DNA of 64,000 nt from a virus: positions 283,393 to 347,392 of IMG/VR virus record IMGVR_UViG_3300042879_006196; one strand, written 5' to 3'. A program made the translations under genes and the position numbers. Shown here one piece after another: positions 29,083-55,729 of the stretch. Every line of letters starts with the position of its first letter. Position 1 is the stretch's first letter. A model generated the notes under the pieces. The model was not told where the DNA came from, made no database searches, and was given only the letters and a program-made list of their open reading frames with translations.

Positions 29083-29919
29083 ATGGACATTAACGAACAA
29101 CTTTTTGAAATTAAAAAGCCCTATCTTAAAACTATCAATTGTCTCGACAAAGGTTTTGTCAGATTGGTGGATTGGATGGGTTCTGATCAAAGAATTGTTC
29201 AATCAGCTCGCGTGTCCTATGGCGATGGAACAAAAACTGTTCGTGAAGATAAAGGGTTAATTGATTATCTTATGCGACACGCACACACTTCGCCTTTTGA
29301 GCAAGTGAATTTCACTTTCCATGCTAAGATGCCAATCTTTGTGGCAAGGCAGATTGTCAGACACAGGACTGCCAAGTTAAATGAGATTTCAGGAAGATAT
29401 TCAATACTCAAGGACGAGTTTTATGAGCCCGATGTTTCTAGAATGGTAAAACAATCTAAAGACAACAAACAGGGCTCTTCTCAAGAATTACTTGAAGATG
29501 CTGAAAGCTTTCTGCAATCATTTAAGGATGAGCAATTTGAAATGTATGATAATTATGAAGAATACATTCAAGGTGGAATGGCAAAAGAAATGGCTCGTAT
29601 AAATCTTCCTTTGTCAATTTATACAGAGTGGTATTGGACTATTGATTTACACAATCTGTTTCATTTCTTAAAACTTAGAATGGATTCTCACGCTCAATAT
29701 GAAGTGAGAGTGTATGCAGACGCTAAATACAACCTGATAAAAGATATTGTGCCATTTGCTTGCGAATCATTTGAGCAACATGTGATCAATGGCAAAAAGT
29801 TTTCAAAAGATGAATTAGACATAATGAAAGAATTGATTCAGCACGAAGACATTAAAAGGTTAGCTGATCAAAGAAATTGGAAAGAATCTAAGGTAAATGA
29901 ATTCCTTAAAAAGATATAA
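29083..29919 (+). CDS. thyX: Flavin-dependent thymidylate synthase
   Basis: The ThyX motif RHRTAKLNEIS (RHR-x7-S) plus the surrounding conserved blocks. Confidence 0.85.
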   Translation: MDINEQLFEIKKPYLKTINCLDKGFVRLVDWMGSDQRIVQSARVSYGDGTKTVREDKGLIDYLMRHAHTSPFEQVNFTFHAKMPIFVARQIVRHRTAKLNEISGRYSILKDEFYEPDVSRMVKQSKDNKQGSSQELLEDAESFLQSFKDEQFEMYDNYEEYIQGGMAKEMARINLPLSIYTEWYWTIDLHNLFHFLKLRMDSHAQYEVRVYADAKYNLIKDIVPFACESFEQHVINGKKFSKDELDIMKELIQHEDIKRLADQRNWKESKVNEFLKKI

Positions 29920-33702: not shown

Positions 33703-35010
33703 ATTGCAGTAATTAGAAAATATTCTACTATTTTTCTAAAACATGTAGGTGATAGCAAATATTAAACTGTAAAAGAACTATATGTTGAAAGCATATAAGT
33801 TTTTGATAAAACCTGCGAAAGAGCAAAGTGAGATGTTTGAAAAACATTTTGGCGCTGCTAGGTTTGTCTATAACTGGGGCTTAGAACAAAAAACAAAATC
33901 TTATCAAGAAGGAAAGAAAACATTGACTTTTCTTGGATTAGGACCAGAACTTGTTAAACTTAAAAAAGAAAACATCTGGATGAAAGAAGTTAATAGCCAA
34001 TCACTATTGGCTTCTCTAAAGAATTTAGACAATGCCTACACTAGATTCTTTCGAGAAAAGAAAGGATTTCCTAAATTTAAATCAAAATACAATCCAAAAC
34101 AATCCTTCCAATGCCCTCAACATTGTACTGTAGATTTTGAAAAAGGATTGCTAAATATCCCTAAAGTTAAAAATATCAAAACTGTATTCCACAGACAATT
34201 TGAAGGAGATATCAAAACTGTAACGATTTCTAAAGTGCCTTCTGGAAAATATTATGTTTCTATCCTTGTGGAAGATGGAAAGTCTTTACAAATTAAACCC
34301 AAACTTGACAGAAACGATGCAATAGGTATTGACATGGGATTGAAAGATTTTGTAGTTACTTCAGATGGAGATAAGATTGCTAATCCGAAATATCTCAGAA
34401 AATCCGAAGAACGACTTGCAAGAAGACAAAGAAAATTAAGTGTAAAAAAGAAAGGGAGCAATAATAGAAATAAACAACGTAAAAAAGTAGCAAAGCTACA
34501 TAAAAAAATAGCTAATCAAAGAAAAGACTTTCTGCATAAAGTATCTCATCAAATAGTTCACAAGAATCACGGAACGATTTGTGTTGAAGACTTGTGTGTT
34601 AAAGGGATGGTCAAAAATAGAAAATTAGCTAAATCAATATCTGATGCAGGATGGGGAATGTTCTATAATTTTCTGAAATACAAATCAGAATGGCATGGAA
34701 AGAATTTCCTTGATATTGGAAGATTTGAACCATCGAGCAAGATGTGTTCAGTCTGCGGGAATATCAAATCAGATTTGACATTATCTGATAGAGAATGGAT
34801 ATGTTCTAAATGTGAAACAAAACACGATAGAGATATCAATGCTTCAATTAATATTCGGAACATGGCATTCACTAATCAGAATTTGGTAAGATGTATAGGA
34901 CTGGAACAGCCCGAATCAACGCCTGTGGAGAAGAAAGCTCTGGTTAGAAATAATGAAACTATCTTCTGCGAAGCAGGAAGCCTCACCCCTTGTGGGTGAG
35001 GTAGTTCACT
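33664..35010 (+). mobile_element. IS200/IS605-family TnpB-only insertion element (IS1341-like), copy 1
   Basis: The left end ACCTGCAAGAA-tt-CCCCATCCGCTTGTCGGTGGGG (imperfect hairpin) and the right end GAAGCCTCACCCCTTGTGGGTGAGGTAGTTCAC (perfect hairpin) are both conserved with copy 2 at 57990-59319. Confidence 0.7.
33782..34999 (+). CDS. tnpB: TnpB (OrfB) RNA-guided-nuclease-family transposon protein
   Basis: 405 aa. Has the N-terminal OrfB_IS605 region, RuvC-I GIDMGL, Glu in CVEDL, the zinc finger CSVCG...CSKC and RuvC-III DRDINASINI. Confidence 0.85.
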   Translation: MLKAYKFLIKPAKEQSEMFEKHFGAARFVYNWGLEQKTKSYQEGKKTLTFLGLGPELVKLKKENIWMKEVNSQSLLASLKNLDNAYTRFFREKKGFPKFKSKYNPKQSFQCPQHCTVDFEKGLLNIPKVKNIKTVFHRQFEGDIKTVTISKVPSGKYYVSILVEDGKSLQIKPKLDRNDAIGIDMGLKDFVVTSDGDKIANPKYLRKSEERLARRQRKLSVKKKGSNNRNKQRKKVAKLHKKIANQRKDFLHKVSHQIVHKNHGTICVEDLCVKGMVKNRKLAKSISDAGWGMFYNFLKYKSEWHGKNFLDIGRFEPSSKMCSVCGNIKSDLTLSDREWICSKCETKHDRDINASINIRNMAFTNQNLVRCIGLEQPESTPVEKKALVRNNETIFCEAGSLTPCG

Positions 35011-35709: not shown

Positions 35710-36408
35710 ATGAAAAATATTCTATCTACATTATCAGATCATGAGTTGGTGGCTATTTACCAATCCAATTCAAATGAAACATACCTGGAAACACTTATTT
35801 CTAGATACGAAAAAATGCTTCGCAAGCTGTCTCATGCGCACACCTTGAAGCATCCAAATACAAATTTAGAAGATAACTTACAAAATGCCAAACATGGGGC
35901 GATTATTGCTTTCAACAGATTCAATACACAATCTTCAACAGCATTATCTACATTTTTACATACAACGGTGTATTATCATTTGCTAACATGTAGTGAAAAT
36001 GAATCATTTGTAAATTGCCCCAGCAATTTAAGAGAAGTGAAATCATATTGCGCTGGTAAATATGATTCAGATTTAAACAAAAAAAATAAATTCGAAGAAA
36101 AATATCGTTTATTCAATGAAAAAGATATTGAAGAATTTAAAAAAACTAATATTGTTTTGTCTAATCCAATTTGTGTCACTGAAAAACTACCAGACTTAAC
36201 TGTTTTCGATGAAAATTCTACAATTGATGAGATTCAAGTCAAATTATTTATTGAAACACTACCCGAAGATGATAAACAGATTGTGTGTATGTTAATGGAA
36301 GGCTATTCTATTTCAAAAATTTCAAAAATTCTTTCATCATCGCATCAAAAAATCTCAGATAAACAAATTAAAAAGAAATTGCAATCAATCCAAACATTAT
36401 TCGTATAA
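35710..36408 (+). CDS. Putative sigma-factor-like protein (divergent)
   Basis: Region-2-like N-terminus, and a C-terminal HTH-like block QIVCMLMEGYSISKISKIL that resembles sigma region 4. Confidence 0.45.
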   Translation: MKNILSTLSDHELVAIYQSNSNETYLETLISRYEKMLRKLSHAHTLKHPNTNLEDNLQNAKHGAIIAFNRFNTQSSTALSTFLHTTVYYHLLTCSENESFVNCPSNLREVKSYCAGKYDSDLNKKNKFEEKYRLFNEKDIEEFKKTNIVLSNPICVTEKLPDLTVFDENSTIDEIQVKLFIETLPEDDKQIVCMLMEGYSISKISKILSSSHQKISDKQIKKKLQSIQTLFV

Positions 36409-36415
36409 TACTATT

Positions 36416-36946
36416 ATGGTTAATTATTATGCTATTCACGTTATGTCTGGTCGTGAAAATAAAACCAGAGATTTGTTGTTAAGTAGAGCTGTGGCTCAAA
36501 AACAATGGCAAGATACAATACTAGACATTATTATTCCTACTGAAAAAGAATATATAACTAGAAGAGGCAAAAGAGTGATTGCAGACAAAAAAGTTTTTCC
36601 AGGCTATATTTTTGTTAAAATGCACTTAGATGAAAATTCTGAAAAACTTGTGCAAGGAACAGATGGTGTCACTGGTTTTGTTAGGTCAGGTAGCAAACCT
36701 GTACCTGTCGCAGAAAGAGAAATAGAACAAATCTTAAAAAATCTTGAAAATTCACAAGAAGATTCTCCGAAATCTAATTTTAAAGCCAATGATATTATTT
36801 CGATTATTTCTGGCGCATTTGCAGATTTTTCTGGAAAAGTTGAATCTATTGATGAATCAAAAGGAAAAGTGAAGGCTTATGTTAATATCTTTGGACGAGA
36901 TACTCTTGTTGAACTTGCAATACAAGATGTTGAGCCTATGAAATAA
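36416..36946 (+). CDS. NusG-like transcription antitermination protein (NGN plus KOW domains)
   Basis: The N-terminus YAIHVMSGRENK is NGN-like. The C-terminus NDIISIISGAFADFSGKV...KGKVKAYVNIFGR is a KOW motif. CGTATAAT lies 6 nt upstream of the ATG. Confidence 0.7.
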   Translation: MVNYYAIHVMSGRENKTRDLLLSRAVAQKQWQDTILDIIIPTEKEYITRRGKRVIADKKVFPGYIFVKMHLDENSEKLVQGTDGVTGFVRSGSKPVPVAEREIEQILKNLENSQEDSPKSNFKANDIISIISGAFADFSGKVESIDESKGKVKAYVNIFGRDTLVELAIQDVEPMK

Positions 36947-37007: not shown

Positions 37008-37595
37008 ATGAAAAAAAATAACGATAATATAAGTGGAATGAATGATACCACAAATAGAGAAAAATTCGAAAAACTTTACAAGCAATCCCGTAGCAAACTT
37101 TACGGGATTGCTTTGTCTGTTGCAAGGGATGCAGATTTAGCAAATGATGTGTTGCAATTAGCCTATCTTAAAGCTTGGCGTAATTTTGATGAATATGATC
37201 AAAACAAAAAGTTTTTAAATTGGATGACAACAATTGTTAGAAATGCTGGCATTGATCAAACAAGACAAAAGAAAAAACACAATCTTGCATTTTCAATTGA
37301 TAGTTTGACTAATCCCACTGATGATAACAAATATCAAGAAATGTATATCGAAGATAAATCTTCTGATATAATGCAAAATTATGAAAGAAAAGAATTAATG
37401 CAAGCAATACAAAAAGAAATCTCTAAAATGCCTGAAGAGCTCAAGCTGGTTTTTATACCATTTGTCAAAGGTTTAACTTATGAAGAAATTTCTCAAGAAA
37501 CAAATGTAACCCTTGCTACAGTAAGAGCTAGAGTTCACCGAGCAAAACAAATTTTAAGAAACAATGAAAATCTTGAAAACTTAGCAAGTTTTTAA
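37008..37595 (+). CDS. Sigma-70-family (ECF-type) RNA polymerase sigma factor
   Basis: Region 2 YLKAWRNFDEYD...FLNWMTTIVRNAGIDQ and region 4 LTYEEISQETNVTLATVRARVHRAKQILR. Confidence 0.75.
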   Translation: MKKNNDNISGMNDTTNREKFEKLYKQSRSKLYGIALSVARDADLANDVLQLAYLKAWRNFDEYDQNKKFLNWMTTIVRNAGIDQTRQKKKHNLAFSIDSLTNPTDDNKYQEMYIEDKSSDIMQNYERKELMQAIQKEISKMPEELKLVFIPFVKGLTYEEISQETNVTLATVRARVHRAKQILRNNENLENLASF

Positions 37596-38141: not shown

Positions 38142-38525
38142 GGGGCGCCCAGGCATTCGACAGAAGAGTATGGGTGTGCGTTGCATGTAGTGGGTGATTC
38201 TCCGGCCACTTCAAAAGAGAATCAAAAAATAAATGGCAAAAATGCTAAAAAGAATCGCAGAAATGGCTTTGGCTCTGCCCAAGCTGGCTTTGCAATGGTA
38301 GCCTAAGTGCTTCCTGGGGATACGTACAACCAAGCTAGTAGGGTGTCTATCTCTTAGAATAAAGTCTAGCTAAAAAACATCTATGATCGAATGATGTAAA
38401 AGCGATATGCAGATTGTGTGGATTTGTTATTTGTTCCTAACAATTTAAGAAAAAACAATAAACTAAACATGTAGTAACGTATATGACAGCTATTTTGGAA
38501 AGGGGTTCGACTCCCCTGCGCTCCA
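38142..38525 (+). ncRNA. ssrA: tmRNA (ssrA), one-piece form
   Basis: The 5' end GGGGCGCCCAGGCATTCGACAG matches the tmRNA consensus GGGG...GG.UUCGAC. The 3' end GGGGTTCGACTCCCC is a T-arm followed by GCGCTCC-A, which pairs with the 5' GGGGCGC and gives the G3:U70 wobble read by AlaRS. An internal ORF ending FAMVA-TAA could be the tag; the tag frame is not certain. Confidence 0.75.
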
Positions 38526-38599
38526 AACTTTATTAAGGTATTTTCAGAAATACTTAGATTCAAATAGGTTCAAATTGTGAATTTCCTTAATATAGGTTT

Positions 38600-41381: not shown

Positions 41382-41957
41382 ATGCTAATACCTTACGTTA
41401 TTGAAAAAACTGGCGAGAACGAACGCTCGTATGATTTATTTTCCAGATTGCTGAAAGATAGAATTATTATGCTTGGAAGTGGAGTGAATGAGCAAACTGC
41501 TAATGTTATCATTGCTCAAATGCTCTTTCTTGAAAAGGAAGATCCAAAAGCTGACATTCATTTTTACATAAACTCACCAGGTGGCTCAGTGTATGATGGA
41601 CTTGCAATTTATGATGTCATGCAGTTTGTATCTTGCCCTGTTGCTACCACTTGTTTTGGAGTTGCGGCGTCTATGGGAGCTGTACTCTTAGCTGGTGGAG
41701 AAAAAGGCAAAAGAAGAATTTTACCTAATTCTCGTGTGATGATTCATCAAGTTTCATCAGGATTTAGAGGCACTACCGCAGATATCAATGTCCAAGCGAA
41801 AGAAACTAATTTTCTCATGGATAAACTTATGCAAATACTTTCTGGTCATACTGGAAAAACTACCGAGCAAGTAAGAATAGATTGCGACCGTGATTATTGG
41901 ATGAGTGCTGAAGAAGCTCTTGAGTATGGTATTATAGACGAGATTATAAAGAAATGA
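41382..41957 (+). CDS. clpP: ATP-dependent Clp protease proteolytic subunit
   Basis: The ClpP blocks [32 protein letters not shown] (catalytic Ser), MIHQ (catalytic His) and the Asp region are all present. Confidence 0.85.
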
Positions 41958-42031: not shown

Positions 42032-43153
42032 ATGAAAGAAATTTTTTCAAAAATATCTGAACAAATAATGCATTCGCCAAATTTAAAACATTTAATTTTA
42101 GCCATTGGATTGAAATATAATACTTCAAATTACATTAAAGTTTCAAATTATATTAAAAACAATAATATTAATGATAGTCATTTCCCTCACCCAAAAGATA
42201 AATTAAAATATATTTCGAATGAAGTGTTTATAGAAGCATATCACAAATCAAAATCTCTTGGTGAACTTTTGTCTCAACTTGGATTAAATCACTCTTACTA
42301 TAAAAAATTGCATAAAAAAATTTTTGATTTGAAATTAGATGTTTCAAAATTTCAATTTGTTAAATGGTCTGAAGCTGAAATTGAGTGTCTCAAAGAAAAT
42401 TATCCTACTAAAACAGAAGATGAATTAAAAATTTTATTTCCTAACAGAACAATTGAAGGACTACAAAGATATGCTTGTTATTATAAAATTAAAAAAACAA
42501 AAAATAATGTTTCTTCTAATTTACGTATTCTTTTAAATAATAATTTAGAATCTTTATATTGGATAGGTTTTATTATGGCTGATGGTACAATTGATTTAAA
42601 ACGTGGCAGGTTGAAAATTTCTGTTGACAAAAAAGATGCAGAACATTTATTCAAGTTTAAATCCTATATTGAATGCGAAAATTCTGTGAAAAATTATTGT
42701 CAATCAAAAAACGCTTTTGGCATTAGTGATTTAAGTGAAATTTCTTTATACAATAAAAATGTTATTGAGAAAATCTCTGACAAATTTAATCTTAAACCAA
42801 AAAAAACATATAATCCTCCTGATTGTAAAATTTTTGAACAATTCGAAATTAATCAAATTTTGTCTTTGATTATAGGCTACATAGATGGAGATGGATGTAT
42901 TTATAAAAATAAAAATGGAAACATTGACATTAAAATAGTTAGTCACGAAAGTTGGATTTTTGTTTTTGAGTTTTGGCAAAAATGTATTGAAAAAAAATTC
43001 AAAACAAAAATTCCTTTTGCGAAAATAAATAGTTCAAAATTGTCACAAATAAATTTTAGCAAAAAACAAATTATTTTTGAATTAAAAAAGTTTGTTGAAG
43101 AAAATAATTTACCTGTACTCGAAAGAAAATGGAATAAAATTTCGTATAGTTAA
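42032..43153 (+). CDS. LAGLIDADG-family homing endonuclease (free-standing, two motifs)
   Basis: WIGFIMADGTI and IIGYIDGDGCI are two LAGLIDADG motifs about 100 aa apart. The N-terminal extension is very AT- and N/K-rich. Confidence 0.7.
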   Translation: MKEIFSKISEQIMHSPNLKHLILAIGLKYNTSNYIKVSNYIKNNNINDSHFPHPKDKLKYISNEVFIEAYHKSKSLGELLSQLGLNHSYYKKLHKKIFDLKLDVSKFQFVKWSEAEIECLKENYPTKTEDELKILFPNRTIEGLQRYACYYKIKKTKNNVSSNLRILLNNNLESLYWIGFIMADGTIDLKRGRLKISVDKKDAEHLFKFKSYIECENSVKNYCQSKNAFGISDLSEISLYNKNVIEKISDKFNLKPKKTYNPPDCKIFEQFEINQILSLIIGYIDGDGCIYKNKNGNIDIKIVSHESWIFVFEFWQKCIEKKFKTKIPFAKINSSKLSQINFSKKQIIFELKKFVEENNLPVLERKWNKISYS

Positions 43154-43155
43154 AT

Positions 43156-43677
43156 ATGAAAAATAATTTAAAAGCAATAGTTATGGACCTGGATGGAGTG
43201 GTTGTAAATAGCTCATCAAGGTTTAAAAGATTGAATCTTGATGCCTTTATTCGCAGAGATGCAAAAGCTTGGATAAAATCAGTGGAATGGTACAATGCTG
43301 ATTGCAGAGGCGATGAAGTGATTGATTTGGGTGTTGATTTACTTGAAATGCTATGCACATTTTACAAACCAGATTGTGTGTTTTTTATCACAGCTAGAGG
43401 GCATGGCGGATATAAACCCACTTTGCAATGGCTTAAAGATGAAGGGATTTGGAAAGAAGATTGTGTTTTGATTATGCAACCAGAAGATTTTGATAATTAC
43501 CACTTCTACACACAATCTGACCATGCTTCATATAAGAAAAAAGAAGCTCTGAAAATTATGGAAAATTATGAGATTGTGTATGCTGTGGACGATAGCGAAG
43601 ACAATGTTCAGGCATACAGAGATTTAAAAATTCCCACGCTGAAGTTTTGTGTGCCTATCGGAAGAGTGCTGGTTTAA
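43156..43677 (+). CDS. HAD-superfamily hydrolase (possible 5'-deoxynucleotidase-like)
   Basis: AIVMDLDGVVVNSS is HAD motif I. The protein is small and single-domain. The gene carries four copies of the ACACAATCT/AGATTGTGT motif. Confidence 0.5.
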   Translation: MKNNLKAIVMDLDGVVVNSSSRFKRLNLDAFIRRDAKAWIKSVEWYNADCRGDEVIDLGVDLLEMLCTFYKPDCVFFITARGHGGYKPTLQWLKDEGIWKEDCVLIMQPEDFDNYHFYTQSDHASYKKKEALKIMENYEIVYAVDDSEDNVQAYRDLKIPTLKFCVPIGRVLV

Positions 43678-43697
43678 TTTTTAATTTGGGTGAATGG

Positions 43698-44042
43698 ATG
43701 AGAAGAAAGATTAAAGATAGTGTGATTGAAAATTTAGAATGCGTTTGCCATTGTTTTTTAGCGCTATCTATGCTGATTAGTTTCTTCATTTCAATATTTT
43801 CTCTCCCTTCTTTTTTGCTAAGAGATATAGGACCTTTTACAAGAGACGTAGGAATAATTGCATTTATATGGTTCTTGATATCGCTTATATGTTTTAAAGT
43901 TAATGATACAAAAGGCTTCTTAAAATTTTTGCATAAAAGAAATGACAAAATAGATGAAGAAGAAAAAGCTAGACAGCAGGCTCTGCTTCTAGAAGCCGAA
44001 GAAAGAAACAGGGCTGAACTTCAGATTTGGGTGAATGGATGA
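43698..44042 (+). CDS. Small two-TM plus coiled-coil protein, tandem paralog 1
   Basis: MRRKIKDSVIEN..., two hydrophobic helices, a C-terminal EEEKARQQALLLEAEERNRAELQIWVNG, and a stop that overlaps the next start as ATGA. Confidence 0.5.
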   Translation: MRRKIKDSVIENLECVCHCFLALSMLISFFISIFSLPSFLLRDIGPFTRDVGIIAFIWFLISLICFKVNDTKGFLKFLHKRNDKIDEEEKARQQALLLEAEERNRAELQIWVNG

Positions 44043-44362
44043 GAAGAAAGATTAAAGATAGTGTGATTGATACTTTAGCAACCGTTTTGTTTTGCTTTCT
44101 TTTTCTATCTTGTCCGATTAGCTTTGTCATCTTTCTATGGTATGCCTCTGGGGACGTTTCTCCGTACATAACAGGAATTGCATTTATATATTTCTTGATA
44201 TCGCTTATAGGTAGTGCATTTTATAATATAGATGGCTCACTAAACTTTTTGCGTAAACGAAATGGCAAAATTGATGAAGAAGAAAAAGCTCAACTTCAAG
44301 CTAAAGCTCAAGCTGAAGCAGAAAGAACTAGAATTGAATCTCAGATTTGGGTGAGCGAATGA
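44039..44362 (+). CDS. Small two-TM plus coiled-coil protein, tandem paralog 2
   Basis: MRRKIKDSVIDT...AERTRIESQIWVSE. Same architecture as paralog 1 and an ATGA overlap at both ends. Confidence 0.5.
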   Translation: MRRKIKDSVIDTLATVLFCFLFLSCPISFVIFLWYASGDVSPYITGIAFIYFLISLIGSAFYNIDGSLNFLRKRNGKIDEEEKAQLQAKAQAEAERTRIESQIWVSE

Positions 44363-44685
44363 AAAGAAAGTTAACTGAAAAGACAGAAGCTGCTTTAATT
44401 CTCTTTCTTTTTATTTTCCTTTTGCTATCTATTTTGATTAGCTTTTGCATCTCTGTACGTTGGTTCTTTTGGTGCAATAACTGGAACGTAGCACTAATTG
44501 CATTTATATGGTTCTTGATATCGTACAAATGTTTTGTAGGTTTTATATGGAACGATGGCATCTCAGACTTTTTGCATTCAAGAAATGACAAAATAGATGA
44601 AGAAGAAAAAGCTAGACAGCAGGCTCTGCTTCTGGAAGCTGAAGAAAGAAACAGGGCTGAACTTCAGATTTGGGTGAATGAATGA
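44359..44685 (+). CDS. Small two-TM plus coiled-coil protein, tandem paralog 3
   Basis: MKRKLTEKTEAAL...EEEKARQQALLLEAEERNRAELQIWVNE. Its C-terminus is near-identical to that of paralog 1. Confidence 0.5.
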   Translation: MKRKLTEKTEAALILFLFIFLLLSILISFCISVRWFFWCNNWNVALIAFIWFLISYKCFVGFIWNDGISDFLHSRNDKIDEEEKARQQALLLEAEERNRAELQIWVNE

Positions 44686-44993
44686 AAGACGGAAAGTATA
44701 CAAAAGAAGATAAAAGATATATGGAAAGTATGTGGATTGACTTTGGTGTTATACTTGTGTTTGCTATTCCATGCTGTTCTAATATACCTGGATTAGAAAA
44801 TTATGGGATTATTACAGGAATAATTCCTATCGTACTTTTTTTTGGTGTGATATTTTTAATTCGAAAGTATGTGCGCACACACAATCAAAAGATAGATAAA
44901 GAATTTCAAGCTGAACAGGAGAAAAAGGAAGCTGAACTTCAAGCTAAAGCAGACAAAGAAAAAGCTAATTCTCAGATTTGGGTGATCGAATGA
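44682..44993 (+). CDS. Small TM plus coiled-coil protein, tandem paralog 4
   Basis: MKDGKYTKED...KEKANSQIWVIE, with ATGA overlaps. Confidence 0.5.
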   Translation: MKDGKYTKEDKRYMESMWIDFGVILVFAIPCCSNIPGLENYGIITGIIPIVLFFGVIFLIRKYVRTHNQKIDKEFQAEQEKKEAELQAKADKEKANSQIWVIE

Positions 44994-45382
44994 ATGAAAC
45001 TATTTGCTATATTTTTGTACCTATTTCTTTTTCTTTATTTTTTATTATTTTAGTAGGTTTTCTAAATCACTTTTCATTAATGGAAAACATTGAAGAAGAA
45101 GAAAAGAAAAAAACAATTAAAATGAGAGCAGAGGAAGAGAGAAAAAGACTTGAAATAGAAGCCGAAAAACTAAACTTGCACAACAAGCAATTAAAGCTTC
45201 ACCTAAAGATTTTGTTGAGCCAGTTCATGGAAAAAAGAATTAAAATAGAAGGAGAGAAAGCTCAACAGAAAGCTCGCCAGATTGCTCAACTTCAAGAAGA
45301 ACAACAAAGTCTTAGAATAAAGGCAGAAGAAGCTGAAGCAGAAAGAACTAGAACACAATCTCAGATTTGGGTGAATGAATGA
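44990..45382 (+). CDS. Small TM plus coiled-coil protein, tandem paralog 5
   Basis: MNETICYIFVPISF...AEAERTRTQSQIWVNE. The in-frame ATG at 44990 overlaps the preceding TGA. Confidence 0.5.
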   Translation: MNETICYIFVPISFSLFFIILVGFLNHFSLMENIEEEEKKKTIKMRAEEERKRLEIEAEKLNLHNKQLKLHLKILLSQFMEKRIKIEGEKAQQKARQIAQLQEEQQSLRIKAEEAEAERTRTQSQIWVNE

Positions 45383-45615
45383 TTTCGGAATTGTATTCTG
45401 TATTTTCGGAGATGGACTTCTTTTCTAAGTTTTGCTTTTGTTTTGCTCTCTTTATGCTTGCATTACTCGTGTGGTGTTTCTTTATAACATTTATTCGAGA
45501 AGAAGCAGAAGAAGCAGAAGAGAGAAAAAGACTTGAAAAACAGGCAGAAGAAGAAAAACTTAAAATTGAAGCCGAAGAAAGAATAAGAGCTAATTCTCAA
45601 ATATGGGTGATTTGA
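45379..45615 (+). CDS. Small TM plus coiled-coil protein, tandem paralog 6
   Basis: MISELYSVF...EERIRANSQIWVI. Last member of the array. Confidence 0.45.
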   Translation: MISELYSVFSEMDFFSKFCFCFALFMLALLVWCFFITFIREEAEEAEERKRLEKQAEEEKLKIEAEERIRANSQIWVI

Positions 45616-45657
45616 TTATGCAATTTTTCAATTTCAAGCGTATAAATAGGTGAGCAT

Positions 45658-46632
45658 ATGTTGAACAAAAATTTTTCAAACGAAGAGCTTCTTGAGCTTA
45701 GACGAAAGCACAAAGAAAAACTTGCACTTCAGGAGCAAGAAACCCAGGAATTGCAAAGAAGAAAAATAGAAGCAGAAAAAAAAGAAGAAGCTGACCGATT
45801 GACATTAACAATTAACAAACTCGTTAATTCATTATTTATTGAGTTTAACAAATCCTTTCAAAGATTTATCCTTACTGAGGATAAAAAATTTGCAATTCAA
45901 GTGGATAGTTCACATGCTGTTTCAACTCTGCTTCCTGGTAGTGAAAAATATAGCAATGTACCTTTTTTGATGCATGAAGCACTAGTTCGAAAAATCAACG
46001 ATACTTACCCAAAGCTCAAATTTTTGAGCTACGTACAACAAAACGCAAATAATACCTACTTTTCAATAGTTTTCGAGCCAATATTGCATAACATTATTCC
46101 CTGTGACATAATCTCAGAAACTCTGCCGAGATGGAAATCTATAAAGACTCTGCCACAATCTGGAAGTGTGTATGTATGTTACACTAATGTAACTGGCGAA
46201 ATAAGTATTCATAAATTTGAAGGAATTGATTTAAGTTCTTTAATCAAAAAGCCAGATTTGCTTCCCACTTTTTGGTTAGAAAAATTACCCAGTTTTAAGG
46301 CAAACATTTTAAGTGCTATAAACATAGTTGGTATGTTGTCATTATTATCAAATATTCCTTTGGTTGTAATTTCAAAGAATTTATTCATCGGGCTTGCTCT
46401 TGGCGCTATTGAAAGTATTGCAATGTTTGTTGCCAATCAAGTGCTCAAAAGCGACAGTATTGAGTCACAATATTCAGAAGATTTATCAAACTACCTTAAA
46501 AGTAATGAATATCTGGCTAATAAAGAGATTGTGTCTTGGTATGATGAATTACCAAAAGATTTTGTAGTAGATGAAAAAACAACCAAACAAAAAGCCTTAG
46601 CTGAGTTTGATAACATCGCAAACACAATCTAA
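45658..46632 (+). CDS. Coiled-coil N-terminus plus C-terminal membrane region protein (larger relative of the array proteins)
   Basis: 324 aa. CGTATAAAT lies 11 nt upstream of the ATG. The N-terminal E/K-rich coiled coil has the same composition as the array proteins' C-termini. Confidence 0.45.
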   Translation: MLNKNFSNEELLELRRKHKEKLALQEQETQELQRRKIEAEKKEEADRLTLTINKLVNSLFIEFNKSFQRFILTEDKKFAIQVDSSHAVSTLLPGSEKYSNVPFLMHEALVRKINDTYPKLKFLSYVQQNANNTYFSIVFEPILHNIIPCDIISETLPRWKSIKTLPQSGSVYVCYTNVTGEISIHKFEGIDLSSLIKKPDLLPTFWLEKLPSFKANILSAINIVGMLSLLSNIPLVVISKNLFIGLALGAIESIAMFVANQVLKSDSIESQYSEDLSNYLKSNEYLANKEIVSWYDELPKDFVVDEKTTKQKALAEFDNIANTI

Positions 46633-46697: not shown

Positions 46698-48110
46698 ATG
46701 TTGAAGCCCATTTACACAATCTCATTAATATCTATTACAGCTATGTCAAATGCTCAATCTGCAGATTTGTCGTTGCCTGTTGGTAAATCTTCCTTTACCA
46801 TAGATTCAAATAAAAAAATAAATTGGGCTGGATCAAATATGAAATATGATTTTGGCAATTTGAAATATGCTGGGACATTTGCAAATAATTCTCAAGTGCA
46901 CAATTTCAATGCAAAGCTAAGTGATGTCACAATGAGCTATACAAGTTCTGCTCCAAAAAACACAGTGGGTATCACTTATCGCGGACTTACATTCACTTCC
47001 GAGGATTTCAATCGAAATGAAGTGCAGAATGTATTTGCCTCAAAAGTATTGGTAGATAACAAAAATACATTATCTTATCAACAAAAACAATTGTCTATTT
47101 CAATGTCAAAGACTATAGGTAGAAATTTTAATTATGATAGCTATTCTTTTGCTTCCAAGGGGACAAAGATTGATTATGTGGCGTCTGAGAAGCCTTTAAT
47201 GATGACAGACGCTTGGAATCGCCCCTATGCCTCAGAAACGTCTATTATGTTTCAATCTCCTACATTCTCAGCACGAATAATGGACAATTATGATGATGTT
47301 CTTTATTCAACAAAAGGTTTCTCCATTAGGACTATTCATCATCCTAAAAGATTTGAGAATACATTAAACTATTCTAATAAAAACTATAATCTATCTTACG
47401 TTCAATTTAATGATGGATACTCTAAAAATTTCTTGAATATAAATGGCAAAGATTTCAAGTTTAAAATGGCAAACGATGGTGAAACTAATATTAGTCAATT
47501 AGAAACAAAAGACACCACAATAGCACATGGTAACAATCAAAACTTTGTTCAATCAAAAATTGATAAAATTGAATATAGATTGTCTGAAAGTACAGGCAAA
47601 ATTAACTATGATGTTAAAGTGGGAAATATTGGCGTAAGAGATGGCGACACATATGGAATTGTCCAACCGATTAAAAATGTTTCTGTAAAAGCATCATCTG
47701 AAAACGGTGTGGAACAAGTAAGTTATAATACATCTGTAAATAAAACAAATATATCTTTAAAATACAATAATCAATTTGATGTTTATGATTTTTATTTCAA
47801 ACAAAATGCATTTAGTGTTTATGAAAACTCATTCTCTTTGATAGGTCAGAATAGATCACAATTTAAAGATTCGTTTTCTTTCAGTTTGGTTAATCCAAAA
47901 TTTAATTTTGCGTCGGATGTTATTAATGACATTTACGCTTTGACATTCAAAAACAGCAATAATTTTGTGCTATCAATGATTAAAGATCAAAAACAAAATT
48001 TTCTTGGATTGACAAATACAGGTAAATTTGGAAATCTTGGCGTTCAGTATAATATGAACACGCAAATGTTCGACAGATTGTCATTTAACTATGTTATCAA
48101 ATTTCATTGA
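46698..48110 (+). CDS. Secreted N/S/Y-rich protein, possibly an outer-membrane beta-barrel
   Basis: Signal peptide PIYTISLISITAMSNAQSADL and an amphipathic beta-strand-like composition. A TTTTCCAGGTTTAACA...TATAAT promoter-like element sits upstream. Confidence 0.45.
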   Translation: MLKPIYTISLISITAMSNAQSADLSLPVGKSSFTIDSNKKINWAGSNMKYDFGNLKYAGTFANNSQVHNFNAKLSDVTMSYTSSAPKNTVGITYRGLTFTSEDFNRNEVQNVFASKVLVDNKNTLSYQQKQLSISMSKTIGRNFNYDSYSFASKGTKIDYVASEKPLMMTDAWNRPYASETSIMFQSPTFSARIMDNYDDVLYSTKGFSIRTIHHPKRFENTLNYSNKNYNLSYVQFNDGYSKNFLNINGKDFKFKMANDGETNISQLETKDTTIAHGNNQNFVQSKIDKIEYRLSESTGKINYDVKVGNIGVRDGDTYGIVQPIKNVSVKASSENGVEQVSYNTSVNKTNISLKYNNQFDVYDFYFKQNAFSVYENSFSLIGQNRSQFKDSFSFSLVNPKFNFASDVINDIYALTFKNSNNFVLSMIKDQKQNFLGLTNTGKFGNLGVQYNMNTQMFDRLSFNYVIKFH

Positions 48111-48352: not shown

Positions 48353-49789
48353 TTATATCACCATTTGTCTTAACGTAATTGTCGAAGTGTTCAATAAAAT
48401 ATATACATAATTTATCATTGTGCCACCATCTTTGTAAACAATATTAAACGCAGTGTCTCCAAGTAAAGCTGCGCCGTTCGGATAAAACATTGTGGTCCAA
48501 CCTGTCATGTTTGATCTAGGAATATTGAAATCGAACCATCGTCCAGTAGCATCTTTCTGAATATATAGGCTATTATCAACATAAGAATATTTTGTTCCAG
48601 TAGTAAATGTTTCTACAGCAGGAGAATATGTTACAGCACTCCATATTCCTAAAGGAATATCATATCTGTCAAGGAGAGCTCCAGCCGCTCCTCTAAACGA
48701 ATAGATATATTTTCCATTAAGAATAGCAGATTGATTCGTCCAATCAGAATCTGTGCAATCATCAATGAAATGAGCTGACATACCTGTACCTGGAGCACCA
48801 CCTCTTGCCACGCCTGGATTAAGTTGTATCCATGTATTTATACCTATAGAATATCTGTAAAGCTGAACTGAGTTGTTTCCTAAAAAGTAAAGAAAATCAT
48901 CATTGGCTTCAATAGAGTAAATTGATGTTGTATCAGGTGTTGTTATCCATGTGGCAACACCTAAAGATGTTGCAGTATTTGAAATAATTGTTCTGATTTG
49001 CCCTGCTCCTGCTCCACCCTTTAATCTTACTTGATAATTTACCCATTGGTTGGTTGTCCATGTTTTTGTATTATCAGAAATCGTAGTTGTAGTTGCGGCT
49101 GAAGCTAAACCTACTGAAAAAGAATTATAGTCTGTAGCATGACCATGCCAAGCTGCTGTAGGAACTAATTTTGCATCAGTACCCACTGTTGCTGGAAAAT
49201 TAACAATGCTTAAAGAAATGTAAGTGTTTGTAGCGTAGTCATAAACCCTATATGAACCTGCGGCAAGAGTACCAGCACTTAAAAGGTAAAAGCGAGGCGT
49301 TATGAGTCTGTATCGAGTTTCTGTACTGAAACCACTCGCTTGTGGAGCAACAAAAATTGTTGCATTGGCTCCAACTGTGTTTGATACAATACCCAAGGTC
49401 AAACCAGAATTTGGTCCTGATAAAATATTAACATGGTATCCTCTTAGATCTCTAGCCAAGCTTTGGTTTGTAATTATTGTTTGATTGCTTCCACCAAGAG
49501 CAGACAATGACGTAATACCTACAGATGATCCAAAAGATATGGGGTGACCAGCTCCACACGCTCCAGCGCCAAATGCACCTGTAAGTGCAGGTGAGGGCAC
49601 TTGTACCCAGCCATCTTCATAAGGGTTATATAAATATGCCACAGTAGCTGAGACCACATATAATTGTTGTTGATTGACTCCATTACTACTTACAATATGT
49701 GCTCCAGCGACTGTAGCCGTTGGAGCAGGTGTTACCATTTCCCATCTTTTCAAATCAAGTATTTTTCGATTTCCATTTGTGGTAGCCAT
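48353..49789 (-). CDS. Thr/Gly/Ala/Ser-rich beta-rich protein, candidate virion structural/fibre protein
   Basis: 478 aa with a composition and local GC clearly different from the flanking genes. No enzyme motif; a structural role is inferred from composition only. Confidence 0.4.
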   Translation of the reverse strand: MATTNGNRKILDLKRWEMVTPAPTATVAGAHIVSSNGVNQQQLYVVSATVAYLYNPYEDGWVQVPSPALTGAFGAGACGAGHPISFGSSVGITSLSALGGSNQTIITNQSLARDLRGYHVNILSGPNSGLTLGIVSNTVGANATIFVAPQASGFSTETRYRLITPRFYLLSAGTLAAGSYRVYDYATNTYISLSIVNFPATVGTDAKLVPTAAWHGHATDYNSFSVGLASAATTTTISDNTKTWTTNQWVNYQVRLKGGAGAGQIRTIISNTATSLGVATWITTPDTTSIYSIEANDDFLYFLGNNSVQLYRYSIGINTWIQLNPGVARGGAPGTGMSAHFIDDCTDSDWTNQSAILNGKYIYSFRGAAGALLDRYDIPLGIWSAVTYSPAVETFTTGTKYSYVDNSLYIQKDATGRWFDFNIPRSNMTGWTTMFYPNGAALLGDTAFNIVYKDGGTMINYVYILLNTSTITLRQMVI

Positions 49790-49790
49790 A

Positions 49791-50231
49791 TTAATTCACT
49801 GTTATATTCCTTCTTAAATTGTCTGCCGCAAATTGCATTATAGCTGGGATCTGAGGGACAGCTGATAAACCTCCCATTTGCGATTGGTTAGTCAAAGTAG
49901 TTACAGTAGTTACAGTAGTTACAGTAGTTACAGTAGCAAGCGTAAGGTTTGCTGTTATTGAATCTAAAAGTATCCTCAAACGTCCTGATGTATCAGGATA
50001 AGCTAAACCAATTGTTCGGTTCAAGGATTGCACACTCATCCTAATTGCCTCTAAACATTCAACAATTTCTCCTTGTGTAATTGTAGCAGGTAATGGATTT
50101 GTCAAAGAGACATCTGTGGCAGTGCCATCCTCACCAAATGATTGTTTTACTCTTTGGTATTGAATACCTCCAACATCATCTGAGGCTATGAGTGTAGAAC
50201 CGCTAGGTGCATAGTTTACATTATCTGGCAT
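49791..50231 (-). CDS. Hypothetical protein with an internal TVTTVTTVTTVTT repeat, candidate structural protein
   Basis: 146 aa. Contains a 9-bp tandem DNA repeat (GTAGTTACA x4) and shares the higher-GC composition of its upstream partner. Confidence 0.4.
   Translation of the reverse strand: MPDNVNYAPSGSTLIASDDVGGIQYQRVKQSFGEDGTATDVSLTNPLPATITQGEIVECLEAIRMSVQSLNRTIGLAYPDTSGRLRILLDSITANLTLATVTTVTTVTTVTTLTNQSQMGGLSAVPQIPAIMQFAADNLRRNITVN
49887..49927. repeat. Perfect 9-bp tandem repeat (GTAGTTACA x4 plus a partial copy) inside a coding sequence
   Basis: Direct reading of the sequence. It encodes TVTTVTTVTTVTT in the minus-strand ORF. Confidence 0.8.
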
Positions 50232-50324: not shown

Positions 50325-52205
50325 TTAATCAACTACTTCAGCGTCCACAACATTAGGATCTATCACTTCTTCATTAGACCCTTGAACATTTTGGTACAAT
50401 ACTTCTGAAAGTTTATGTGAAACTTGCAGTAGGTTGTCTTTAGCTGTTTGAATTTGATTTTTGTCATTTGTTTTTAAAGCTTCTTTAGTTTTTTCTAAAG
50501 CTTCTTGAACATCATCAATCAAGTTTTGCTCTGCTTTATCTTTCGACATTTCAATCGTGGTTTCTATACTAGAGCACAAAGTTTCAGTCTCATTCTTCAA
50601 GAGAATAAACTCTTTTGCTTCTTTATCTGCTTCAGCATATTCTTCAGCCTCTTTGATCATTCGATCAATTTCATCTTTTTCCAAGTTCGAAGATTGTGTG
50701 ATTGTGATACTTTGCTCTTTGCCAGTTCCAAGATCTTTTGCTTTCACACTTAAAATACCATTGGCATCTAAAGAAAACTCCACTTCGATTTGTGGGATTC
50801 TTGCTGGCGCAGGAGCAATCCCCGAAAGATTGAACATACCCAAGCTTTTGTTGTCTTTGGCAATAGGTCTTTCGCCTTGTAAGATATGAATAGTAACCTC
50901 AGTCTGATTATTAACAGCAGTGGTATATACACTCTTTTTCTGTGTCGGAATAGTCGTGTTTTTTTCAATAAGCACATCAACCATTCCTCCATTTACTTCA
51001 ACACCCAAACTCAAAGGAGTGACATCTAAAAGAATAATGTCCTTGACATCTCCTGCCAAAATGCCTCCTTGAACTGCCGCTCCAAGAGCCACTGCCTCAT
51101 CAGGATTCACACCTTTAGATGGCTCTAAGCCTGTAATTTCCTTAATCAAACTTTGAACACAAGGGATTCGTGAACTACCACCAACAAGAATTACTTCATT
51201 AATCTTAGATTTGTCCACACCTTCCTTGAGAGCATTTAGCAATGGTTTTTTGATTCGATCCAAGAGGGGTTTCACCATAGATTCAAAATTAGCCTTAGTC
51301 AATTCTAAATCAACATGCAATGGATTTCCATCCACTGCTGTAATGTAAGGAAGATTTATTGATGTGGTTGCCTGTGAAGAAAGTTCAATTTTAGCTTTTT
51401 CTGAAGCTTCTTTCACTCTTTGCATTGCCGCTGAATCTTTGCTGATATCTACACCAGTAGATTTTTTTGTTTCAGAAACAATCCATTCCGATACTTTATT
51501 ATCAAAATCATCTCCACCTAAATGACTATCTCCTGAAGTGCTCAAAACCTCAAATGTTCCATCACCAATATCGAGAATAGAAACATCAAAAGTTCCTCCA
51601 CCAAGGTCGAAAACCAAAATATAACCTTCTTTATCCTTGCTTACACCATAAGCCAAAGCCGCAGCTGTTGGCTCATTGATGATTCTCACTACTTCAAGCC
51701 CAGCAATTTCTCCTGCATTTTTTGTAGCTTGTCTTTGTGAGTCATCAAAGTAAGCAGGGACAGTAATCACTGCTTTACTAACAGTGGTTCCTAAGTAACT
51801 TTCAGCATCCACTTTAATTTTTTGAAGAACTGCCGCTGAAATTTCTTCTGGTGTAAAATCTTTACCCACCGCAGGAATTTCAATTACAGCTAAGCCCTTT
51901 TTGTTTTTCTTAACCTTATAACTAACTTTACCCACTTCATTAGAAATCTCATCATACTTGTGTCCCATAAAACGCTTGACAGATGAGATTGTGTTTTTGT
52001 GATTAGTGACAGCACTCCGTTTTGCAGAAATGCCAACAATCCGCTCACCATCTTTTTTCCACGATACTACGGAAGGAATAGTTCTATTTCCTTCAGATGA
52101 CGAAATCACTTTAGCTTCACCAGCTTCCATGATAGCAACGCACGAATTAGTCGTGCCAAGGTCGATTCCTAATATGTATTCTTTTGCCATATAAATAATA
52201 TACAA
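50325..52205 (-). CDS. dnaK: Molecular chaperone DnaK (Hsp70), bacterial type
   Basis: 626 aa with IDLGTTNS, DLGGGTFDVSIL, GDSHLGGDDFD and a substrate-binding domain. The C-terminus lacks EEVD. A rho-independent terminator follows on the minus strand. Confidence 0.95.
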   Translation of the reverse strand: MYIIYMAKEYILGIDLGTTNSCVAIMEAGEAKVISSSEGNRTIPSVVSWKKDGERIVGISAKRSAVTNHKNTISSVKRFMGHKYDEISNEVGKVSYKVKKNKKGLAVIEIPAVGKDFTPEEISAAVLQKIKVDAESYLGTTVSKAVITVPAYFDDSQRQATKNAGEIAGLEVVRIINEPTAAALAYGVSKDKEGYILVFDLGGGTFDVSILDIGDGTFEVLSTSGDSHLGGDDFDNKVSEWIVSETKKSTGVDISKDSAAMQRVKEASEKAKIELSSQATTSINLPYITAVDGNPLHVDLELTKANFESMVKPLLDRIKKPLLNALKEGVDKSKINEVILVGGSSRIPCVQSLIKEITGLEPSKGVNPDEAVALGAAVQGGILAGDVKDIILLDVTPLSLGVEVNGGMVDVLIEKNTTIPTQKKSVYTTAVNNQTEVTIHILQGERPIAKDNKSLGMFNLSGIAPAPARIPQIEVEFSLDANGILSVKAKDLGTGKEQSITITQSSNLEKDEIDRMIKEAEEYAEADKEAKEFILLKNETETLCSSIETTIEMSKDKAEQNLIDDVQEALEKTKEALKTNDKNQIQTAKDNLLQVSHKLSEVLYQNVQGSNEEVIDPNVVDAEVVD

Positions 52206-55415: not shown

Positions 55416-55729
55416 AAAAAGCAAGTCGTGCACCAATATATACGGCGTGTGTATATCCAGATTTGGCTGAAATTTGTCGCGAGGCTGGCTATGCATTAGC
55501 AGTGCATGGTTCACTTGCCAGAGATTTTGACCTTGTTGCTATACCTTGGGTAGAAAATGTTATTATCCCAGAAATAGTTGTGCAGGAAATAACAAAAAAA
55601 TTCTCTGTCAAACAAATAGGCGAGCCAGAGTGTAAATTACATGGGAGATTGTGTTATACCTTAGCATGGATGGGTGAAGCGTTTATAGATTTTTCGTTCA
55701 TGCCTGTGCAAACACAAGAATTAAAATGA
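55413..55729 (+). CDS. Hypothetical protein
   Basis: MKKASRAPIYTA..., preceded by the strong SD GGAGGAGGAGGAAGAAAA-ATG. This is the inner start of the 55331-55729 ORF. Confidence 0.4.

Follow-up and report, generated by a model that had tools for sequence, protein, structure and literature searches.

A strain-variable array of small gene cassettes with a common QIWV tail and a dual-coded junction in a probable huge freshwater phage

Introduction

Why would six neighbouring small genes of a virus, which differ over most of their length, all end in the same four residues, and what else might the DNA that encodes this common end be doing? These questions are raised by the 64,000-nucleotide (nt) stretch of IMG/VR virus record IMGVR_UViG_3300042879_006196 that was analysed here in full (positions 283,393 to 347,392 of the record; hereafter the window). 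At positions 43698-45615 of the window, six plus-strand genes lie head to tail, and each encodes a protein with an N-terminal hydrophobic part, a charged helix and a C-terminal Q-I-W-V. An earlier note on this DNA had described the array and had listed, as candidate roles, membrane-anchored scaffolds, holin- or spanin-like proteins, superinfection exclusion, and polymorphic partners of a common interactor. The last of these is the reading favoured by our data, with a putative interactor. We tentatively propose that the genes are cassettes shuffled by recombination, in which a common cytoplasmic tail would dock onto, or assemble with, a constant partner, and in which the variable heads would provide membrane anchoring or, through leucine-rich repeats (LRRs), target binding. 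Three elements of our account had no place in the earlier one: the probable identity of the genome as a huge phage, LRR proteins that carry the same tail, and a nucleotide-level role of the gene junction alongside its coding of peptide.

Results

Six cassettes with one common end

Re-translation reproduced all six consecutive plus-strand genes at the starts that had been reported for them. We refer to these genes as cassettes, and to the parts of their products as head (the N-terminal portion, with its transmembrane (TM) helices) and tail.

43698-44042, plus strand: cassette 1, 114 amino acids (aa); basic N-terminus, two-TM hairpin (head H1), charged helix, tail ending ERNRAELQIWVNG
44039-44362, plus strand: cassette 2, 107 aa; two-TM hairpin (H1), tail ending ERTRIESQIWVSE
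44359-44685, plus strand: cassette 3, 108 aa; two-TM hairpin (H1), tail DNA almost that of cassette 1
44682-44993, plus strand: cassette 4, 103 aa; distinct two-TM head (H3), tail ending DKEKANSQIWVIE
44990-45382, plus strand: cassette 5, 130 aa; one N-terminal TM (H5), 96-aa charged helix, tail ending ERTRTQSQIWVNE
45379-45615, plus strand: cassette 6, 78 aa; one TM (H2), tail ending ERIRANSQIWVI

When the six proteins were aligned, the only invariant columns were M1, one serine and Q-I-W-V, the latter being followed by NG, SE, NE, IE, NE and I in cassettes 1 to 6, respectively. The tails are dominated by charged and small or polar residues, with E, K, R, Q, A and D making up 57-71% of their composition. 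The tail consensus that had been proposed previously held for its QIWV end, but the residue three before the Q departs from it in copy 2 (I) and copy 5 (T). Similarly, a two-TM architecture had been assigned to all six proteins; this was borne out for copies 1-4, but copies 5 and 6 have a single hydrophobic segment. A coiled-coil nature of the tails could not be established, as these are charged helices of weak heptad character in which hydrophobic residues occupy the a and d positions at a frequency of only 0.27-0.42. The near-identity that had been seen between the 3' ends of cassettes 1 and 3 was evident as 3 differing positions over the last ~112 nt, compared with 25-40% identity further upstream. 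Cassettes 1 and 2, in turn, are identical over their first 30 nt. Elsewhere in the 64,000-nt window, neither an LRR member nor additional array copies were found.

A dual-coded junction

The boundaries between the cassettes, together with the sequence ahead of the first one, are as follows.

43688-43700, plus strand: junction-like initiation context before cassette 1, GGGTGAATGGATG (GGGTGA-ATGG-ATG); no tail is coded there
44022-44042, plus strand: junction 1/2, CAGATTTGGGTGAATGGATGA; codes QIWVNG and the stop, holds the Shine-Dalgarno (SD)-like GGGTGA and overlaps the next ATG
44342-44362, 44665-44685, 44973-44993 and 45362-45382, plus strand: equivalent junctions
45598-45615, plus strand: terminal copy

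As had been claimed, stop and start overlap as ATGA at each of the five internal junctions, although two of these read GTGAGCGAATGA and GTGATCGAATGA instead of the forms quoted at the time. The tail codons TGG GTG A.. spell GGGTGA, which is placed 4 nt before the ATG of the following gene; this ATG is itself overlapped by the final codon and the TGA stop, and all internal stops are UGA. At its conserved 3' end, 16S rRNA is complementary to GGTGA(TC). An SD is present in few other genes of the window, and most lack one. With up to one mismatch allowed, the window contains 7 occurrences of the junction motif CARATWTGGGTGA, versus 0.46 expected, and none of 100 shuffled sequences reached 7. The array copies are all exact (6/6), and the seventh copy, at 55458, carries one mismatch.

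Codon usage at the junctions is strongly skewed. CAG accounts for 70% of glutamine codons there versus 12% genome-wide, and GTG accounts for 96% of valine codons versus 26%. The mimic of the junction that the earlier note had seen ahead of gene 1 was confirmed as GGGTGAATGGATG, and its GGGTGA-N4-ATG context proved to be invariant in six strains. Because the rare CAG and GTG codons are fixed at the junctions and because GGGTGA-N4-ATG also precedes the first gene, the junction is dual-coded, specifying at once the end of a peptide, an SD-like element and a stop/start overlap. Each cassette is therefore a self-contained unit of start, head, tail and stop/SD, whose 3' end supplies an initiation context for whatever gene follows, and the cassettes are probably translationally coupled. 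The junction RNA was no more structured than shuffled controls (z -0.7 to +1.7), and no attC-like inverted repeats were found at the junctions.

Conservation is equally marked at the level of the peptide. In five sister loci, QIWV was present in 26 of 26 genes that had been defined by their position, using database gene calls and not the motif. Codon variation within QIWV in this set was synonymous only and confined to third positions (CAG/CAA, ATT/ATA, GTG/GTA). Cassette 6 of the window, with CAA ATA TGG GTG, likewise differs synonymously from the other cassettes. Amino-acid changes in the motif occurred in three of the other sequences listed: QIGV (P0031), QIWS (P0015) and QIWA (P0097).

One slot, filled differently from strain to strain

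Sister loci were recovered from many lake metagenomes, by exact-protein look-ups and by a metagenome scan for the junction. These loci share a conserved gene order of S26 peptidase, nucleotidyltransferase, ClpP, HAD, array, 324-aa protein, ~470-aa protein and DnaK, with 0-3 genes between the last two. Between the HAD gene and the 324-aa gene lies a slot that holds 1-9 genes, in varying order, depending on the strain. The comparison of copy number across related genomes, which the earlier note had called for, therefore showed that both number and order of the cassettes vary. Identity of the flanks to those of the window is 76-90% for the HAD protein and 49-85% for the 324-aa protein. The six-gene layout of the window was reproduced in five independent JGI samples.

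In many strains, the slot additionally holds soluble LRR proteins of 172-311 aa without a signal peptide, which end in the same charged helix and SQIWV(I/N)(G/E). A 287-aa protein of locus L084, for example, matched Pfam LRR_14 at 5.1e-16 (58.8 bits versus a cut-off of 40), with LRR_1 and LRR_8 also above their cut-offs. The LRR domain of the sister strains is built from a variable number of 23-residue repeats, and TM and LRR forms occur together in many arrays.

Altogether, 110 distinct full-length tail-bearing proteins were collected. Their heads form 15 clusters and their tail cores 11, and these are combined many-to-many. Fourteen of the head clusters are unrelated kinds of one- or two-TM anchor, and one is the soluble LRR type. 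The tail is a charged alpha-helix of ~20 to ~95 residues that ends in R-x-x-S-Q-I-W-V, its minimal common element being approximately E-E-x-R-x-x-S-Q-I-W-V. The tail ending EEMIRFKSQIWV was found on LRR heads as well as on two unrelated TM heads. Conversely, a protein of L102 has a head near-identical to that of cassette 1 of the window but a different tail, the proportion of synonymous differences (pS) being 0.02 in the head and 0.31 in the tail. P0031 and P0022 have a body in common and differ in their tails, and P0007 and P0019, also with a body in common, differ in both leader and tail.

Heads and tails also differ in the selection acting on them, as measured by the ratio of nonsynonymous to synonymous change (dN/dS; median pairwise Nei-Gojobori values for TM head clusters with at least 5 comparable pairs and for tail clusters with at least 6 same-tail pairs). 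Median dN/dS was 0.79 for TM head H1, 0.78 for H2, 0.94 for H6 and 1.24 for H9, versus 0.26-0.35 for the tails; values for TM head H5 and for the LRR heads were 0.54 and 0.38, respectively. The diversified N-termini and conserved C-terminal module that the earlier note had recognised were thus borne out. The tail is its constrained, constant part and is under purifying selection, whereas the TM heads are either diversifying or required merely as generic anchors.

The ~20-120 nt of conserved tail and junction DNA provide a substrate for homologous recombination, by which cassette exchange is best explained. Recombination has duplicated, deleted and reordered cassettes and has exchanged tails between heads. 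In L084, a full junction relic, CAGATTTGGGTGAATGAATAG, directly follows the HAD stop with no gene attached (L084 9106-9126). In L083 (7918-8243), the first cassette is apparently frameshifted, with only its C-terminal 49 aa called as a gene, a relic of cassette turnover.

Predicted topology of the cassette proteins

In cassettes 1-4, the N-terminus is basic, and the second of two hydrophobic helices is followed by a segment rich in K and R, a pattern that indicates an N-in/C-in arrangement. Cassettes 5 and 6 have one TM helix followed by a charged helix, and their orientation is ambiguous from charge alone. The AlphaFold2 model of cassette 1 (predicted local distance difference test score 77.5) agrees with the predicted topology; in it, helices span residues 7-40, 46-70 and 73-113, and residues 73-113 form one continuous helix. 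All tails are most likely cytoplasmic, because of the positive-inside rule and because the LRR forms have no signal peptide.

A family confined to one lineage

Comparisons with Pfam, PHROG, PADLOC, PDB and BFVD gave no significant match, in agreement with the earlier impression that no known family is represented. Specifically, PDB sequence searches with profiles of the family and of the 324-aa protein returned noise (best match ZapD, E 0.031), the BFVD fold search yielded nothing at E <= 1e-3, and cassette 3 as query found no relative in the GTDB species genomes. A word-indexed search did recover 61 clusters. An exhaustive hidden Markov model (HMM) search of 1.84 billion representatives recovered 18 proteins at E <= 1e-3, all of 49-124 aa, with QIWV at the end of 17 and QIWA at that of the remaining one (P0097). 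The charged helix, R-x-x-S/L-Q-I-W-V followed by 0-2 residues, placement in the slot between the HAD and 324-aa genes, and the GGGTGA/ATGA junction were found together in 6 of 6 window genes and in 26 of 26 genes of the sister loci. The QIWV-tail family is confined to one uncultivated phage lineage, and literature searches found no comparable phage array as a precedent.

Several candidate explanations were discarded along the way. A programmed frameshift or fusion had been raised by the clustering of P0101 (257 aa) with a family member, and P0101 proved to be a chimeric assembly with unrelated sequence. C-terminal recognition of the PDZ, ssrA or HbYX type was rejected in view of the variable last one or two residues. 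A beta-clamp-binding motif (QL[SD]LF), which we take to be a poor fit to the tail, was rejected.

Flanking genes and transcription

The genes and elements that border the array are listed below.

43143-43150, plus strand: CGTATAGT box, 5 nt upstream of the HAD ATG
43156-43677, plus strand: HAD/PNKP-like phosphatase gene; upstream flank, in the same position in all syntenic loci
45618-45653, plus strand: spacer with an 11-codon mini-open reading frame (mini-ORF; MQFFNFKRINR) and a CGTATAAAT box
45658-46632, plus strand: conserved 324-aa membrane protein, always the first gene after the array
46698-48110, plus strand: conserved 470-aa protein; downstream flank in all syntenic loci, two genes after the array

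The HAD gene product matched Pfam Acid_phosphat_B and HAD_PNKP, both slightly under the curated cut-offs, and phrog_415 (polynucleotide kinase) at 1.7e-16. The 324-aa protein has a long N-terminal charged helix (residues 8-72). This is followed by a small alpha/beta domain, a pair of hydrophobic helices (~217-260) and, at the C-terminus, a helical region. Its relatives fall into 32 clusters, and it is most conserved at the N-terminal charged helix, with 42 of the 92 invariant columns lying in residues 1-82. Pfam, PHROG, PDB and fold searches found no relative, and the protein lacks a signal peptide. The 470-aa protein is rich in N, S, F and Y and begins with a signal-peptide-like N-terminus that lacks a lipobox cysteine; it matched nothing in Pfam, PHROG or PADLOC and may be secreted or belong to the envelope.

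Ahead of the 324-aa gene, the promoter-like element that had been noted earlier was found again as CGTATAAAT at 45639-45647. In place of an SD, most genes of the window have a box resembling CGTATAAT (CGTATAWW) just upstream of the ATG; such boxes occur 21 times, versus 4 expected, and probably represent a phage-specific promoter that gives very short leaders. Examples lie at 12835, 13491, 36402, 37596, 41365, 45639 and 52344, typically 5-15 nt upstream of start codons. The mini-ORF of the spacer begins 2 nt past the stop of the last cassette, and its own stop falls within the AGGTGA ahead of the 324-aa gene. It is kept in four strains but not in L084, where the box is kept, and it is probably incidental, a by-product of the conserved promoter box. 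Between the box of the HAD gene (43143) and that at 45639, no further CGTATAWW box was found, and scans of the same interval for sigma-70 promoters and terminators gave chance-level results with no excess. Because this interval has neither a box nor an excess of promoter- or terminator-like sites, the array is probably co-transcribed with the HAD/PNKP-like phosphatase gene, the latter being first in the transcript.

Further out, the region is flanked in every strain by full-length ClpP (41382-41957, plus strand; Pfam 5e-75) and by DnaK (50325-52205, minus strand; NCBIfam 4e-264). Two minus-strand ORFs downstream of dnaK (49791-50231 and 48353-49789) had no family match. A free-standing LAGLIDADG homing-endonuclease gene (42032-43153, plus strand) lies between the ClpP and HAD genes in the window strain and in L091-L095, and is not at that site in L081, L083, L084, L087 and L090.

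Identity of the genome

The genome is probably that of a huge (jumbo) freshwater phage, uncultivated, and not that of a cell. Genes typical of phages include a PurZ/PurA-like adenylosuccinate synthetase next to ThyX, the GH108 endolysin, the methyltransferase and 941-aa ORF described below, two TnpB genes and the LAGLIDADG gene. Contigs carrying the locus reach 356 kb. The window has ~31% G+C, one tmRNA and no tRNA, the tmRNA being the only match in an Rfam scan. This tmRNA (38142-38526, plus strand) is full-length (Rfam 108 bits), and its tag peptide, AKKNRRNGFGSAQAGFAMVA, ends in MVA and not in the usual LAA. The DnaK reached at best 62% identity among the matches returned from 185,579 species-representative genomes (GTDB), and DnaK is also present in huge-phage records of 630-735 kb. 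A methyltransferase shares 37% identity with a protein of Synechococcus phage S-SKS1. In a 941-aa orphan ORF (19797-22622, plus strand), the C-terminal ~230 residues resemble multi-copy proteins of jumbo phages, namely Bacillus phage G gp563, proteins of Listeria phage LPJP1 (10 places) and the 'tryptophan repeat gene family' of BpSp.

An adenylosuccinate-synthetase homologue that is short (319 aa; 28105-29064, plus strand) matched Pfam at 8.6e-78 and phrog_1211 at 3.5e-62, and ThyX lies directly downstream (29083-29919, plus strand). The label of phrog_1211, '2-aminooxy adenylosuccinate synthetase', hints that the homologue is of the PurZ type, and there are hints of a genome containing 2-aminoadenine (Z-base) or otherwise modified; neither DatZ nor MazZ was recognised in the ORFs adjacent to the PurZ-like gene. 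A clear sigma factor (37008-37595) and a NusG homologue (36416-36946) are encoded, and a possible second sigma-like gene (35710-36408) showed a weak Sigma70_r2 match in sister loci only. Two IS200/IS605-type genes for TnpB, an RNA-guided endonuclease, are present (33782-34999, plus strand; 58037-59200, minus strand). This element appears to be mobile within the phage lineage, since sister strains carry TnpB at other positions near the array. Sister loci further encode a Tad3 (anti-Thoeris) homologue downstream of dnaK (L087 18228-18674; L090 16799-17236), DUF551, and a ThyX into which an HNH-containing intein is inserted (L090 1-465). An envelope-related gene cluster of the window (23220-23789, 24211-25242, 25733-26269 and 26320-27114) encodes an STN (secretin/TonB N-terminal) protein, a protein with a prepilin-type N-terminus (type IV pilin-like), an RmlC dTDP-sugar epimerase, and an endolysin with GH108 and PG_binding_3 domains at 26320-27114.

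Discussion

The anatomy and evolutionary dynamics of this lineage-specific family are clear from the comparisons above, and from them we infer a docking function for its tail. In the reading that we favour, and hold only tentatively, the tail would serve all members as a common element for docking or assembly. Through it, the variable heads, which confer localisation to the membrane or target binding by LRRs, would be linked to a single constant partner at the membrane's inner face. The first candidate for this partner would be the 324-aa membrane protein, on the grounds of its invariable adjacency. Because the array behaves like an arms-race locus, the biological role would probably lie in host takeover, counter-defence or exclusion.

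A number of observations weigh against this reading. The partner was picked by adjacency alone, within one phage lineage in which synteny means little, and a profile-profile comparison of the tails with the N-terminal helix of the 324-aa protein was not significant (9% probability). Arrays with TM heads only, such as that of the window, exist alongside contig fragments with LRR heads only (L101, L147), so that the two classes of head do not strictly depend on each other. The dN/dS ratios are simple Nei-Gojobori values obtained on recombining, AT-rich genes, and the high ratios of the heads are as compatible with relaxed constraint as with diversifying selection. As to the phage identity of the genome, which is also what we infer, neither a capsid nor a terminase gene was found in the window, and cell-like genes are present, namely those for DnaK, ClpP, sigma factors, NusG, a type IV pilin-like protein and an STN-domain protein. 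The lineage, moreover, had no match in INPHARED (cassette and 324-aa protein) or in IMG/VR (protein and junction DNA).

The junction invites an explanation in which the mature protein has no part. The conserved end would be a nucleic-acid device, comprising an SD-like element, ATGA termination-reinitiation and a recombination site, and QIWV would be a by-product or a nascent peptide that tunes UGA termination and reinitiation. The preference for rare CAG and GTG codons, the GGGTGA-N4-ATG held invariant before the first cassette although no tail is coded there, the scarcity of SDs among the other window genes, the unstructured and accessible junction RNA and the uniform UGA stops are all as this explanation would have them. 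What makes it quite unlikely in our view is that the CAR, ATH and GTR codons vary synonymously only, with no amino-acid change of QIWV in the position-defined gene set; that conservation reaches further upstream, to R-x-x-S and a helix whose dN/dS is ~0.3, well past the needs of an SD; and that SQIWV is kept in the last gene of each array though no cassette follows. Alternatively, the tails might associate with one another, building homo- or hetero-oligomeric helical bundles at the inner membrane, so that the cassettes would encode small membrane-perturbing or exclusion proteins, serving superinfection exclusion or takeover of the host membrane, and would tether LRR proteins to the membrane in some strains. 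In favour of this, translational coupling would promote co-production of array members, a hydrophobic IWV patch terminates the long helical tails, many arrays contain both TM and LRR forms, and there is weak, sub-threshold PHROG similarity to 'membrane protein' moron families. Such bundles nevertheless seem doubtful, as the a/d occupancy is poor for a coiled coil, a roughly five-fold range of tail length is awkward for a common bundle, and both TM-only arrays and contig fragments with LRR forms only are known.

Both the packaging of proteins into virions and the machinery encoded nearby offer further functions for a short constant peptide. LRR domains are typical of injected bacterial effectors, and huge phages package many internal proteins; accordingly, the tail might be a virion-packaging (capsid-targeting) peptide, and the cassettes a polymorphic set of packaged and ejected proteins, namely LRR effectors and pilot proteins that insert into the membrane. 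To place a short conserved peptide at one terminus of unrelated, strain-polymorphic phage proteins of a variable locus is the logic of the T4 internal proteins, whose portable capsid-targeting sequence (CTS) is N-terminal, ~10 aa long and cleaved by the prohead protease (PMC7697877). It is also that of encapsulin cargo loading, in which a short C-terminal peptide on diverse cargo proteins docks to one constant partner, as we propose for the array. Unlike the T4 CTS, to which it has no sequence similarity, the constant part of the array proteins is C-terminal and follows a long charged helix, the N-termini are of at least 15 unrelated types, and most members are integral-membrane proteins. Unlike encapsulin cargo, the array has no adjacent shell gene, its members are membrane-anchored or LRR proteins and not enzymes, and its motif is unrelated. 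Given also that the locus lies among non-structural genes (ClpP, phosphatase, DnaK) with no capsid or protease gene nearby for a tag that in T4 is cleaved off, and that integral-membrane hairpins with basic N-termini would be unlikely soluble capsid cargo, we regard packaging as improbable. If the tail were instead a tether or degron, recognised by DnaK or by the phage ClpP together with a host unfoldase, the cassettes would encode protease or chaperone adaptors, or proteins of timed turnover, with LRR heads delivering host targets for degradation. In every syntenic locus, the ClpP gene lies two genes before the array and that of DnaK a few genes after it, and F-box/LRR receptors and the SspB XB tether follow the same principle, in which a short docking motif stays constant and the attached binder varies. 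This reading is decidedly improbable, in that the last one or two residues vary (N/S/I, then E/G/V, or absent), so that recognition of a free C-terminus (ssrA-like, PDZ or HbYX) is unlikely; to our knowledge, the tail resembles no known ClpX, ClpA or SspB motif, and synteny within a single lineage is weak as evidence. Finally, the holin- or spanin-like role that had been put forward earlier found no support. Class II holins or antiholins (two-TM) and i-spanin-like proteins (one TM and a helical domain) do share with the cassettes a small size, one or two TM helices and a highly charged, helical C-terminal domain, an architecture (two-TM in cassettes 1-4) that is generic and not diagnostic. Cassette 4 had sub-threshold PHROG matches to a holin (E 0.014) and an Rz-like spanin (E 0.072), and a Rhodococcus phage holin was among the non-significant fold matches (E 1.0). 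No family or fold match was significant, however, and the GH108 endolysin gene lies 16.6 kb upstream of the array. Within 43698-45615, there is no further plus-strand ORF of 40 aa or more that might encode an o-spanin, and the neighbouring 324-aa and 470-aa proteins, lacking a signal peptide and a lipobox cysteine, respectively, provide no lipoprotein partner. It would be unusual for lysis genes to form multi-copy, shuffled arrays that range from 1 to 9 copies per strain, the tail is predicted to be cytoplasmic, and the same tail is carried by soluble LRR proteins; a lysis function is thus very improbable.

Returning to the docking reading, its nearest parallels are parallels of logic only. 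Polymorphic toxin and orphan-cassette arrays exchange cassettes through a conserved segment (PMC3482391). The array shares with these systems tandem recombining cassettes, a protein with one constant and one hypervariable part, and an arms-race type of locus. It differs in that it is phage-encoded and its polarity is reversed, with the constant part C-terminal and the variable part N-terminal; in that Pfam and PADLOC searches found no toxin or immunity domains in it; and in that every cassette is a complete gene, unlike the silent 3' cassettes of polymorphic toxins. Like integron cassettes, the array genes are head-to-tail promoterless units of variable number and order with a conserved junction between them. 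Unlike in integrons, there are no attC-like inverted repeats and no integrase among the neighbours, and the junction lies inside coding sequence. A constant docking motif combined with a variable LRR is seen in eukaryotic F-box/LRR proteins, and LRR effectors of bacteria include IpaH, SspH and YopM. The LRR domain of the sister strains is similarly fused to a short constant module, which is compatible with a 'binder plus docking handle'. In contrast to F-box/LRR and IpaH-type proteins, there is no F-box or NEL domain, and the handle, a helix with SQIWV, is also carried by bare membrane anchors. Modular recombining accessory cassettes are already known in phages; what is uncommon here is a tail common to membrane anchors and LRR binders, and a junction that specifies peptide end, SD, stop and start together.

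These analogies permit a further step, which we consider unlikely. The SQIWV tail could be a portable address tag that plugs anchoring or target-binding domains into one effector machine, either the 324-aa protein or ClpP with a host unfoldase, and the array would amount to a recombinationally reprogrammable adaptor. The codons of the tag might then have been co-opted as ribosome-binding site and overlap, making the cassettes mobile and self-expressing, in a logic similar to that of F-box/LRR proteins.

Whatever its function, the dual-coded junction is a clean case of overlapping constraint in an SD-poor genome, and it may help to explain how the array expanded and how its expression has been sustained. 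The accessory genes of huge phages are mostly uncharacterised. If the tail is indeed a docking handle, the array would be a compact, natural viral example of 'binder plus handle' modularity, with combinations re-sorted at the level of strains. It could then indicate a new mechanism of host takeover or counter-defence in huge phages, and could yield a small, transferable pair of tag and partner.

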